NCBI GenBank assembly: GCA_048937405.1
Contig: JBHLNF010000001.1
Span: 987,114 to 1,051,113 of the forward strand
DNA length: 64,000 bases
Source: Promethearchaeota archaeon
GTDB lineage: Archaea; Asgardarchaeota; Lokiarchaeia; Sigyniarchaeales; SOKP01
Direction of reading: 5' to 3'
Position 1 is the first letter of the stretch. Every line of letters starts with the position of its first letter. This document shows positions 9,617-12,148 of the stretch, in pieces. The notes beneath the pieces were generated by a model. The model did not search any database and was not told the DNA's origin. It saw nothing but the letters and a program-made list of their open reading frames with translations. A program made the position numbers and the translations under genes.

Positions 9617-9988
9617 TTATTTTTTTATCTCTTCAATTTTTTTAACAACATCATTTAATGCGTTTTCATTTCCAGAGCCGACATTTTCAATAGCAATTGC
9701 ACTTGAAGATACATTGATTCTAATCACATTTCCAAGTTCTTTTTTAGTTGATAAATAACCATAGGGAATTCCTTTCTCTTCACAGAGAAGTGGAATGTGA
9801 AATAAAATTTCTGGAGGAGTTACATCTTCAGCCATAACAACCAATTTTGCTTGAACTCTTTCAATAGATTTAGTTACTTCATTCATACCTTTTCTAATTT
9901 TTGAATCTCTTGTTTCTGCTATTGTTGTTAAAGTATTCTTGAGCTGATTTTTTAACTTTTCAGGTATTTTAAATTTAACATATGAAAT
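9617..9988 (-). CDS. rpl7ae: 50S ribosomal protein L7Ae, probably starting at ATT (9988-9986), 123 aa
   Basis: Frame continues upstream of the tracked ATG through IRKG and SYVKFKIPE, the conserved L7Ae N-terminus; in-frame TGA at 9997-9995; no ATG/GTG/TTG in that stretch. Confidence 0.93.
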   Translation of the reverse strand: MSYVKFKIPEKLKNQLKNTLTTIAETRDSKIRKGMNEVTKSIERVQAKLVVMAEDVTPPEILFHIPLLCEEKGIPYGYLSTKKELGNVIRINVSSSAIAIENVGSGNENALNDVVKKIEEIKK

Positions 9989-10140: not shown

Positions 10141-10372
10141 ATGATTATACCTATTCGCTGTTTTTCATGTGGTAAGCTCATAGCTCATGTCTATAAACCT
10201 TACCTTGAGATGATAGAAAAAGGAGAGCCTTCTGAAAAGGCTTTTAAAGAGTTAGGAATCGAGCGATTCTGTTGTAAACGCATGATCGTAAATTAGTAAG
10301 CATTTAAGCTTTCTAAGCGTATGTCATGTGGACCTAATAGATGAACTCCTTAAATTTCCGAGATTGCAATGA
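10141..10372 (+). CDS. rpoN: RNA polymerase subunit Rpo10 (RpoN/RPB10), two exons: 10141-10291 and 10323-10372, 66 aa
   Basis: Joined translation MIIPIRCFSCGKLIAHVYKPYLEMIEKGEPSEKAFKELGIERFCCKRMIVSHVDLIDELLKFPRLQ has the CxxC and CC zinc ligands and the SHVDLID motif; the unspliced frame stops at TAG 10294-10296. Confidence 0.93.
10292..10322 (+). other. 31-nt bulge-helix-bulge type intron in rpoN pre-mRNA
   Basis: Outer helix 10279-10285/10324-10330; central 4 positions 10286-10289/10317-10320 (one U-U); 3-nt bulges 10290-10292 and 10321-10323; inner helix 10293-10301/10308-10316; cuts after the 2nd nt of each bulge restore AGT-CAT (Ser-His). Confidence 0.82.
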
Positions 10373-10395
10373 ACATACACATCTAATAACAAAAT

Positions 10396-11681
10396 TTAAG
10401 AGAAATGATCTAAATATTTTCTTTTGAATTTTATAATCTTTCTATTAAAATTTAGATCCCAAATCTTATTTTCTACTCTCTTCCAATATGAATGTGGCAG
10501 TGTTTCAACACTAAATTCATCACATAATCTCTTAAAAAGATCAAAACTAACACCAAAAAACTCGGCTAATTTAGTTCTAGGTCCAAGATTAATCAACTCA
10601 TCTATGATATCTTTTTTCCCTATTTTTTCACGAAGAACTTCATAAGTATATCTCCCTCCCTTCATTGGATAAAATACTCTTTTTCTTTCCATACTGAATT
10701 CAAATGATTCCATCATAAAGTTAAATAATATTGGACCGATTCTTAAATACCAATGGTCTTTTATATCACAGTTTTTTATCCAAACTTTTTCTCTCCCTGC
10801 AATTTTCTTATTTTTAACTTCATGTCTTAAATTAAATTCTTCCTTAATTTGCTCAAGAAATTGCTTATTTGAATTATGAATTATAGGCGCTCCTTCTTCA
10901 CCATCCCCATCATAAAAGCCGAGTAATACTGACAAAGCCACTTTATACATTAAATTTCTAAAAAAGCCAACTCTTAAACATTTTCCTTCTTTAAAATCTA
11001 AAAATCCCAATTTTATTAAATCCTTAATCATTGGAATACATCCAATTCTAATTCCATATCTTTCTGGATATTCTCCTGATTTTTTTCTTATCCTCCTATC
11101 AATTTTATGTTCAATTTTATTTATAACATGTAATTCATTACGAAATCTCTCAATAACCTTGGAATCCCTCTTTTCTAAAAAAAGGCCAATATGTCCATCC
11201 TTAGAAATAAATCCATCAGCAAGTAACAATCCAAAATAATAACCTTTGTTTGTTGTATTAAGTAATTTAAAGTAATGTTTTTTTAAATTAGGATTATGAA
11301 GATGCCATTGCTGTTGTCGATACTCAAGGAGTTGATTTTTTTCAATATAATTATAAATTAATTCTTTACATTTTTTAATATCTTTATTGCTCAACTTTTT
11401 TGATAAAGATTTGATAAAATCTATTAATTGCTCAACTTTTTTGATAAAGATTTGATAAAATCTATTAATTGATCTTTTGAAAATTTAAAATAGGGATTAT
11501 GCTTTGGACTATTTGAATTCTTTATCCTAAACCGAGTATCTCTTATATATCTAATATGCATACCCAAATATTCAGAAAATTTGTCATATGAAAGTATTTT
11601 TCTATGTATTTTACTAGTTGATACTAATTCTGATATTTCTTTACGTAGATCTTCTATGAAATCTAATGTAGAATATTCCAT
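10396..11681 (-). pseudogene. Two-motif LAGLIDADG homing endonuclease, frameshifted (414 aa if repaired)
   Basis: Motifs YYFGLLLADGFI and VLLGFYDGDG; ORFs 11424-11681 and 10396-11394 fuse in frame (...SLSKKLSNKDIKKCKE...) when one 41-bp repeat copy is removed. Confidence 0.85.
11386..11471. repeat. Perfect 41-bp tandem duplication with ATTG microhomology
   Basis: attgctcaacttttttgataaagatttgataaaatctatta at 11386-11426 and 11427-11467, followed by attg. Confidence 0.97.
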
Positions 11682-11852
11682 AATTGTCTATGAAAATTGA
11701 ACTGATATAGGATTTTTAGTTAGAAAATTAGTTATTCCAATATTTATGATAAATGAGAGTGATTGATTATTAATTTCATCTCTAAAGTGAGACAAAGAAT
11801 CTTAGATATAATATAGATTTAAAATAGGTTTGAAAAATTAGATAAAAATTCT

Positions 11853-11897
11853 ATAGATTTATTCGATGAATTACTTAAATTTCCTCGATTACAATAA
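11853..11897 (+). pseudogene. Orphan duplicate of the rpoN 3' end
   Basis: Encodes IDLFDELLKFPRLQ* versus VDLIDELLKFPRLQ* at 10328-10372. Confidence 0.9.
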
Positions 11898-11936: not shown

Positions 11937-12119
11937 TTATTGTTTCCCGTAATGGGCAGTCCATCTCGTTTTTCTTGCTTTTTTATTATAATCTAACATT
12001 GATTTACGGCATTTGTTAGTACAAAAGTTCAAGACTGTACCATCTCTCTTTACAAACATGAGACCTCGGCCTATAGGAATATCATAACCACAAAAACTAC
12101 ATTTTTTTACCTTTACCAT
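11937..12119 (-). CDS. rpl24e: 50S ribosomal protein L24e
   Basis: CSFCGYDIPIGRGLMFVKRDG...FCTNKC...RKTRWT; ATG at 12119. Confidence 0.96.
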   Translation of the reverse strand: MVKVKKCSFCGYDIPIGRGLMFVKRDGTVLNFCTNKCRKSMLDYNKKARKTRWTAHYGKQ

Positions 12120-12148
12120 TAGTAACACATATAAAAATTGTTTAAACT

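Follow-up and report, generated by a model that had tools for sequence, protein, structure and literature searches.

A candidate mobile rpoN allele with a bulge–helix–bulge mini-intron and a free-standing LAGLIDADG nuclease in a Promethearchaeota genus

In a 64,000-nt stretch of DNA from a Promethearchaeota archaeon (hereafter the window), the gene for RNA polymerase subunit N/Rpo10 (rpoN) is interrupted by a 31-nt insert with the geometry of a bulge–helix–bulge (BHB) intron, and is followed by a broken LAGLIDADG nuclease gene and an orphan copy of its own 3′ end. We propose, with a probability of roughly 0.6, that a mobile rpoN allele, comprising an intron and a nuclease, is in circulation within a single genus of Promethearchaeota (Lokiarchaeia-type Asgard archaea), and that this locus is a copy of it in decay. 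An original prediction, made from the window sequence, had described an intron-bearing rpoN, a convergent LAGLIDADG gene 23 nt further on and an orphan rpoN tail, in that order, and all four elements (interrupted rpoN, BHB insert, broken nuclease gene and orphan tail) were found where it had placed them. The same interrupted layout was found in nine other genomes of the genus and in seven metagenome contigs, indicating that it is neither a chance arrangement nor an assembly error.

Throughout, G000 denotes the window genome, other G numbers further genomes that were compared, and L numbers extracted loci or metagenome contigs. The genus sample comprised 54 genomes; rpoN was located in 47 of these, to which the counts of interrupted alleles refer. 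Whether a nuclease was present was judged within the extracted rpoN flanks of each genome.

The rpoN insert as a bulge–helix–bulge intron

The rpoN frame from 10141 reads to ...CCKRMIV and then meets AAT TAG, and the conserved end of the protein, HVDLIDELLKFPRLQ, continues in a different frame with its stop at 10370-10372. Removal of the insert joins GTA A to GT CAT and gives a 66-amino-acid (aa) RpoN (...RMIVSHVD...) ending in RMIVSHVDLIDELLKFPRLQ, which has the same length as, and is collinear with, the uninterrupted RpoN of relatives. No further rpoN copy was found in the window genome (4.47 Mb in 29 contigs, 100% complete, 5.7% contamination), where the interrupted gene is the sole rpoN.

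The archaeal BHB motif consists of a 4-bp central helix with a 3-nt bulge directly 3′ of each of its strands; cleavage occurs after the second bulge nucleotide. At rpoN, a 7-bp exon helix h (CGCAUGA at 10279-85 with UCAUGUG at 10324-30), a central helix H (UCGU at 10286-89 with GCGU at 10317-20), the bulges AAA (10290-92) and AUG (10321-23) and an intron hairpin h′ of 4+4 bp (10293-96 with 10313-16, and 10298-301 with 10308-11) follow this plan, and the three helices abut with zero spare nucleotides. The central helix contains a U-U and three pairs in G000 and is fully paired (4/4) in G072 and L173. Across 16 interrupted rpoN alleles, 89.3% of the pairing cells were paired, compared with 31-49% when the partners were slid by 1-3 columns. 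Five pairs were changed on both sides, four of them in the hairpin and one, from C-G to U-A, in the central helix, and the covariation score was matched by none of 500 shuffles. A single-sequence minimum-free-energy fold did not show the BHB motif, preferring an alternative pairing specific to G000.

Excision in the accepted register yields IV(S/G)HVD in 16/16 alleles, and this is the only register that gives conservative residues throughout. A register with the bulges 5′ of the central helix was dropped, as its product would have Cys in G000, and in other alleles Arg, Gly or Ile. Frameshifting was likewise excluded: the insert of G030 is 30 nt long and in frame but holds a TAG, so a shift of frame cannot rescue the protein. 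More generally, insert lengths of 30 and 31 nt in rpoN, and of 30-32 nt in the phosphofructokinase (PFK) gene described below, are compatible only with excision.

Judged by structure and covariation, therefore, the insert is a canonical archaeal hBHBh′ intron, as the original prediction had held. The splicing enzymes encoded in the window genome comprise two paralogues of the EndA catalytic domain and RtcB; a recent preprint describes a broad-specificity two-subunit EndA of the (alpha-beta)2 type in most Asgard genomes. Splicing of the rpoN intron by EndA and RtcB is thus probable from its structure, its covariation and the necessity of a complete RpoN.

The neighbouring LAGLIDADG nuclease gene

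The nuclease frame lies on the minus strand, converging on rpoN, and ends 23 nt past the rpoN stop. It is not intact in the window, where a 41-bp tandem duplication shifts the frame; when one copy was removed in silico, a 414-aa frame without a stop was obtained. The two copies are identical, indicating a very recent event. The duplication is bounded by ATTG.

Two LAGLIDADG motifs are present in the window copy, and in an alignment of 22 sequences the Asp of the first motif was conserved in at least 90% and that of the second was invariant. The window copy itself had no Pfam match, even at E 10. The intact 488-aa orthologue of G008 (L044:2440-3903) passes the Pfam cut-off for LAGLIDADG_3 (24.5 bits vs 22.5), and three paralogues in the window genome match LAGLIDADG_3 or LAGLIDADG_1. 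An AlphaFold (AF2) model of the G008 protein, built with the same alignment, had a pLDDT of 77, with the first 76 residues disordered. Its top PDB matches were all LAGLIDADG enzymes (bI3 maturase, I-AniI, I-SceI, PI-SceI, I-DmoI and I-Tsp061I; E 4e-5 to 1e-3). The rpoN neighbour is accordingly predicted, from motifs and modelled fold, to be a double-motif LAGLIDADG homing-type nuclease. The family is small, with 32 clusters in 5.8 billion proteins. All clusters with a named source came from Promethearchaeota, Lokiarchaeota or a marine sediment metagenome, and one was labelled a DOD-type homing endonuclease. Every located relative with at least 47% identity adjoins rpoN. In G012, the rpoN-linked nuclease has an extended frame of at least 912 codons, the start of which resembles a zinc ribbon.

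The orphan rpoN end and comparison with intron-less sisters

The orphan tail in the window reads SIDLFDELLKFPRLQ followed by a stop, and its match to rpoN begins with the codons immediately downstream of the insert site. Its origin became apparent when carriers of the intron were compared with intron-less sister genomes. In all four pairs, the sequences flanking the locus were closely similar, whereas the 5′ part of rpoN was more diverged: the respective identities were 92-94% and 81.5% for G018/G076, 94.0% and 81.9% for G030/G064, 93-95% and 83.9% for G001/G031, and 89-94% and 86.3% for G016/G014. In the plain allele, host-type homology resumed 7-22 nt beyond the insert site, a point that in the carrier lies at the orphan tail. 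Over 42 nt, the orphan differed from the working tail of the sister by only 1 nt in G016 and 2 nt in G018, and the orphan of G030 still opens with the bases that flank the insert site. The tail in use (exon 2), in contrast, encodes an identical protein in all carriers with many synonymous changes, and these tails share a codon signature unlike that of the orphans and the plain alleles.

The sister comparisons further revealed that the DNA upstream of rpoN is often foreign as well, commonly over more than 2 kb; G018 and G030 have a leucine-rich repeat (LRR) gene in common there, and G001 has a 574-codon frame. These comparisons indicate that a break occurred in the resident gene at the intron site, that its own 3′ end stayed in place and that its 5′ part was exchanged for that of a foreign rpoN. 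The orphan is thus the displaced end of the resident gene, matching the tails of intron-less sisters as predicted. The further proposal that a cassette had supplied a new 3′ end holds in that the tail in use is foreign; since the rpoN 5′ part and the upstream DNA are foreign too, however, the exchanged unit was the whole rpoN allele and not the 3′ end alone.

Distribution in the genus, nuclease position and decay

Interrupted rpoN genes were found in 10/47 genomes (G000, G001, G008, G016, G018, G024, G025, G030, G069 and G072), and one of the seven interrupted alleles on metagenome contigs came from a marine sediment metagenome (LCGC14). The remaining 37 genomes have plain alleles. On a tree based on 2 kb of rpoB, the ten carriers require 10 changes, where shuffled labels average 9.3, and every carrier has an intron-less sister. 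The ensemble of intron and nuclease is therefore sporadic in the genus, as expected of a homing element.

The position of the nuclease gene relative to rpoN varied. It is downstream and convergent in G000, G001 (with three frame breaks), G008, G069 and the contigs L220 and L238, and upstream and co-oriented in G024, L251 and L252; the antisense orientation described in the original prediction does not extend to these last three. In G016, G018, G030, G025 and G072, no nuclease was detected in the extracted rpoN flanks. In alleles that have no downstream nuclease, the intron is still accompanied by the new tail, the orphan and a spacer of 10-110 nt. Because the nuclease can move or be absent while these elements stay, its insertion did not create the duplication: the original rpoN end was indeed displaced, but not by the entry of the nuclease gene.

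A nuclease gene was found near rpoN in 5/10 interrupted and 1/37 plain genomes (Fisher p 9e-4; the genomes are kin). The evidence on co-occurrence of intron and nuclease in relatives is thus mixed: half of the carriers have no nuclease nearby, and the nuclease also occurs with plain rpoN. The sole plain allele of this kind among the 37 genomes is that of G012. This genome has a near-identical sister, G063, with which it shares only 72.6% identity over the whole of rpoN, next to a flank that is 95.6% identical and inverted. In addition, on three metagenome contigs (L340-L342), nucleases with 47-49% identity converge on a plain 66-aa rpoN at 12-22 nt, and no orphan is present. We refer to these pairs of a nuclease and an uninterrupted rpoN without an orphan (G012 and L340-L342) as form A. 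Since the nuclease is paired with both interrupted and plain rpoN, the constant unit is the pair of rpoN and nuclease, and the intron is one of two forms in which this pair exists.

Among the interrupted alleles, a series of decay stages was observed. The nuclease gene is broken in G000 and G001 and deleted in G016, G018 and G030, and the duplication has collapsed in G025 and G072, where the intron is present and the orphan absent. The tail of G072 is partly cassette-like and partly host-like. The pattern in G025 and G072 resembles what recombination between the two tails would leave.

A second nuclease–intron pair and other paralogues

The window genome encodes a paralogous nuclease (L004:1144-2220) that shares 34% identity with the window copy across residues 28-248 and ends about 100 nt upstream of the PFK gene. 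The latter reads MTIKRVGILTGGG, then a 31-nt insert, and then (D)CPGLN. The insert has a BHB motif with a 4/4 paired central helix (GCGG with CCGU), and the hairpin loop AUUUAA is common to the PFK and rpoN introns. Orthologues of the PFK-linked nuclease in G020 (78%) and G073 (57%) precede the same interrupted PFK gene, and the central helix of G073 pairs GUGG with CCAC, a compensatory change. A pattern search over 46 genomes of the genus identified a PFK insert of 30, 31 or 32 nt in nine of them, scattered across the genus, with the nuclease beside the gene in three (G000, G020 and G073). Relatives of the PFK-linked nuclease (L351, L352 and L353, from G073, G069 and G033) have very long Lys/Glu-rich N-terminal extensions, their open frames reaching 950-1300 codons.

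Other paralogues in the window genome also adjoin gene fragments. One (L005) is flanked on one side by a complete DUF1848 gene and on the other by an orphan 5′ copy that covers the first 52 profile positions at 51% identity and has a stop where the full gene has Leu. Another (L003) lies just after an isolated UvrA-like C-terminal fragment, with an intact aIF5B gene downstream. No intron or duplicated end was found beside the paralogues L006 and L007, nor in the aIF5B gene next to L003. The search for family members beside other genes with small BHB inserts, suggested with the original prediction, was thus successful at PFK.

Features of the locus and further observations on rpoN

The features discussed here are listed in Table 1. 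The genes flanking the locus are rps28e, rpl7ae, rpl24e and rps6e. Separately, 17-nt pattern scans of genome and metagenome collections returned mainly chance matches; 15 matches survived a stricter filter.

Table 1. Positions of the features of the rpoN locus (window coordinates) and of related loci elsewhere in the window genome (G000)
Feature	Position	Strand	Evidence or remark
rpl7ae, left flank	9617..9886	-	Pfam Ribosomal_L7Ae
rpoN (RNA polymerase subunit N/Rpo10) exon 1, ends GTA A	10141..10291	+	Pfam RNA_pol_N 4e-22, profile positions 1-49 of 58
Predicted complete hBHBh′ motif	10279..10330	+	read from sequence; covariation on 16 alleles
Predicted BHB mini-intron, 31 nt, cut after 2nd nucleotide of each bulge	10292..10322	+	excision restores 66-aa RpoN
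rpoN exon 2, cassette-borne tail	10323..10372	+	same protein in carriers, own codon signature
LAGLIDADG nuclease, C-terminal 332 codons, both LAGLIDADG motifs	10396..11394	-	57% identical to intact G008 orthologue
Perfect 41-bp tandem duplication shifting nuclease frame	11386..11467		copies 11386-11426 and 11427-11467 identical
Nuclease, N-terminal 85 codons	11424..11681	-	60-78% identical to N-terminal region of orthologues
Orphan rpoN 3′ tail, displaced end of resident gene	11850..11897	+	81% identical over 36 nt to 10335-10370
rpl24e, right flank	11937..12128	-	Pfam Ribosomal_L24e
PFK gene with 31-nt BHB insert inside GGGDCPG motif	L004:2319-2430 (G000 contig C25, ~149003-149065)		
Nuclease paralogue between complete DUF1848 gene and orphan 5′ copy	L005:424-3062 (G000 contig C20)		
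UvrA-like C-terminal fragment, isolated, 67 codons	L003:491-694 (G000 contig C7, ~57 kb upstream of window)		

Some further peculiarities of rpoN were observed. The first codon is ATG in G000 and ATA, ATC or ATT in G018, G016, G024, G030, G025 and G012 (L038, L039, L040, L042, L043 and L046), which suggests either non-AUG initiation or a different start. G074 has two full-length rpoN genes on separate contigs (L277 and L281), which may reflect contamination or strain mixing in the bin. In another genus of the order, G054 and G052 contain lone rpoN fragments besides a full rpoN (L345:3018-3101 and L346:3006-3101), namely a 3′ piece of ~35 codons and a 5′ piece of ~17 codons; these may be relics of similar replacements.

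Proposed mechanism and alternative explanations

In the mechanism that we propose, the mobile allele would carry the 31-nt BHB intron in rpoN together with a free-standing, double-motif LAGLIDADG gene, and the cell's tRNA-splicing endonuclease (the two EndA paralogues) and RtcB ligase would remove the intron from the mRNA to give the essential RpoN. The nuclease would introduce a double-strand break into an rpoN that lacks the intron, at the insertion position or adjacent to it, and repair of this break from the carrier allele would copy in the carrier rpoN with its intron. If the right-hand crossover fell in or beyond the orphan tail, the nuclease gene would be copied as well, and the last 15 codons of the recipient's own gene would persist as the orphan, starting at the break. 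The carrier allele would escape cutting through its intron or, in form A, through sequence divergence alone. Once no targets were left, the nuclease would decay, by the 41-bp duplication here and by frameshift or deletion elsewhere, and recombination between the two tails would give rise to a stand-alone intron.

Several observations weigh against this mechanism. A U-U mismatch reduces the central helix of most alleles to 3/4 pairs, and an exon-1 tree (147 nt) did not unite the interrupted alleles; at this length the tree had poor resolution and could not show whether the 5′ part moves along with the cassette. The position of the nuclease varies between downstream-convergent and upstream-co-oriented, five of the ten interrupted genomes have no nuclease nearby, and, because the genomes are kin, the comparison of 5/10 with 1/37 overstates their independence. 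Furthermore, form A shows close relatives of the nuclease beside uninterrupted rpoN genes, so that the intron is not needed for immunity, contrary to the original prediction, in which it was the intron that protected the carrier from its own nuclease. The nuclease target might not even span the intron site.

The occurrence of the nuclease with uninterrupted rpoN and no orphan, the five interrupted genomes without it and its unfixed position relative to rpoN would also be expected if the nuclease were merely a neighbour, homing to the rpoN 3′ end or the rpoN–rpl24e spacer independently of a real spliced intron, with the interrupted allele spreading or persisting by ordinary recombination and hitch-hiking. 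We consider this explanation unlikely, given that every orphan shows the resident gene to be broken precisely at the intron site, that the nuclease is found far more often with the intron than with the plain allele, and that a nuclease paralogue is paired with a second intron at PFK.

A different history, in which the interrupted and duplicated allele had a single origin in the ancestor of the genus and, with no drive from a nuclease, underwent repeated loss or was sorted by recombination, would fit the lack of resolution in the exon-1 tree and the finding that divergence among the cassette tails is about as great as that among the species. Such an old polymorphism would, however, require approximately ten precise losses on the RpoB tree. 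The orphans, moreover, keep an open frame and a stop and lie within 1-2 nt of the working gene of the sister, and were therefore under selection until recently, and close sisters differ far more in the rpoN 5′ part than in the flanks. We therefore regard this history as decidedly improbable.

The combination of a short insert with a hairpin, a stop just after the break and an adjacent nuclease gene is also the layout of gene 60/mobA, and the 31 nt could in principle be skipped by the ribosome, by programmed bypassing of the phage T4 gene 60 type, or overcome by some other recoding. We give this explanation very little weight. Matching take-off and landing codons are missing in G016, G072 and L173, where the 3′ repeat is CATA, CAGA or CGGA; only excision would yield one and the same product from inserts of 30, 31 and 32 nt; and the paired exon helix and 3-nt bulges have the covarying geometry of an EndA substrate. 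We know of no archaeal precedent for programmed bypassing. Finally, the 29 contigs and 5.7% contamination of this metagenome-assembled genome might point to an assembly error or to a pseudogene, but we find either scarcely credible: different studies contributed the 10 genomes and 7 contigs that show the same interruption, exon 2 bears the mark of purifying selection and no second rpoN copy was found.

If the window locus does descend from a mobile allele of rpoN, the PFK locus raises a broader possibility, namely that the genus harbours a family of ~31-nt BHB mini-introns that invade protein genes as passengers of free-standing LAGLIDADG nucleases. Each paralogue would be dedicated to one host gene (rpoN, PFK and perhaps more), and the intron would serve as the immunity determinant and, once its nuclease had been lost, persist as an ordinary spliced intron. 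This proposal is tentative, and we rate its chances at somewhat less than even.

Implications

Protein-spliced (BHB) introns do not have the self-mobility of group I and group II introns, which leaves their means of spreading to be explained. The locus and its relatives lay out a possible life cycle, from invasion through nuclease decay to a lone intron, and suggest how tiny introns enter archaeal protein genes. The decay stages, which end in the lone introns of G025 and G072, fit the route for seeding such introns that the original prediction had envisaged. As the host is an essential transcription gene of Asgard archaea, the locus also bears on how introns could have settled in protein genes before the spliceosome. 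Concrete test material is available in the intact 488-aa nuclease and in natural intron-less and intron-bearing targets. If a mini-intron family with dedicated nucleases does exist, it would represent a working mechanism of intron gain in protein genes in the closest prokaryotic relatives of eukaryotes. The nuclease family could also yield new archaeal meganucleases with defined natural targets.

Comparison with known systems

A literature search retrieved no report of a BHB mini-intron that is paired with a nuclease encoded outside it, nor of an rpoN intron in Asgard archaea. The classic case of BHB introns associated with LAGLIDADG enzymes is that of the archaeal rRNA introns, which encode enzymes such as I-DmoI and I-Tsp061I. 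The nuclease fold and the splicing machinery would be the same in the rpoN system, but in the rRNA genes the nuclease is encoded inside a long intron of a stable RNA gene, whereas the rpoN intron is too small for this and its host gene is protein-coding. Among protein genes, the intron in the cbf5 pre-mRNA of Crenarchaeota (PMC2738675) is the only case of a BHB intron in the searchable literature. Like the rpoN intron, it lies in protein-coding sequence and shows gain and loss among relatives; it differs in gene and phylum, and neither a nuclease nor a duplicated gene end has been reported there.

Two known systems resemble individual parts of the locus. The 50-nt coding gap of T4 gene 60 and the mobA nuclease form one mobile cassette (bioRxiv 10.1101/2022.08.31.505936; PMC2988022), in which, as at rpoN, a tiny non-coding insert in an essential gene is accompanied by a neighbouring homing endonuclease. 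The cell tolerates that insert because the ribosome bypasses it, whereas the rpoN insert has the geometry of an RNA-splicing substrate and its take-off/landing match is not conserved. In Glomus mitochondria, endonuclease open reading frames (ORFs) bring a replacement C-terminus into atp6, atp9, cox2 and nad3 and displace the native one (PMC3630166). There too, a LAGLIDADG ORF separates the displaced native gene end, which matches that of close relatives, from a foreign in-frame end that differs chiefly at silent sites. The Glomus genes, however, have no intron at the junction, and the nuclease is co-oriented or fused, whereas in the archaeal genus it is antisense or located elsewhere and the 5′ part of the gene is exchanged as well.

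A further parallel is provided by the collaborative, or trans, homing of phages, as described for F-CphI with the psbA group I intron of cyanophage S-PM2 and for T4 mobE with the td intron (PMC6083498, PMC2790892, PMC2988022). In these phages, as proposed for rpoN, a nuclease encoded outside the intron and adjoining the intron-bearing gene cuts intron-less alleles, and intron and nuclease are inherited together through repair of the break. The phage introns are self-splicing group I introns in viral hosts. In the system described here, for which we infer cleavage, a 31-nt protein-spliced BHB intron would instead be transmitted among cellular archaea, leaving behind a piece of the resident gene.

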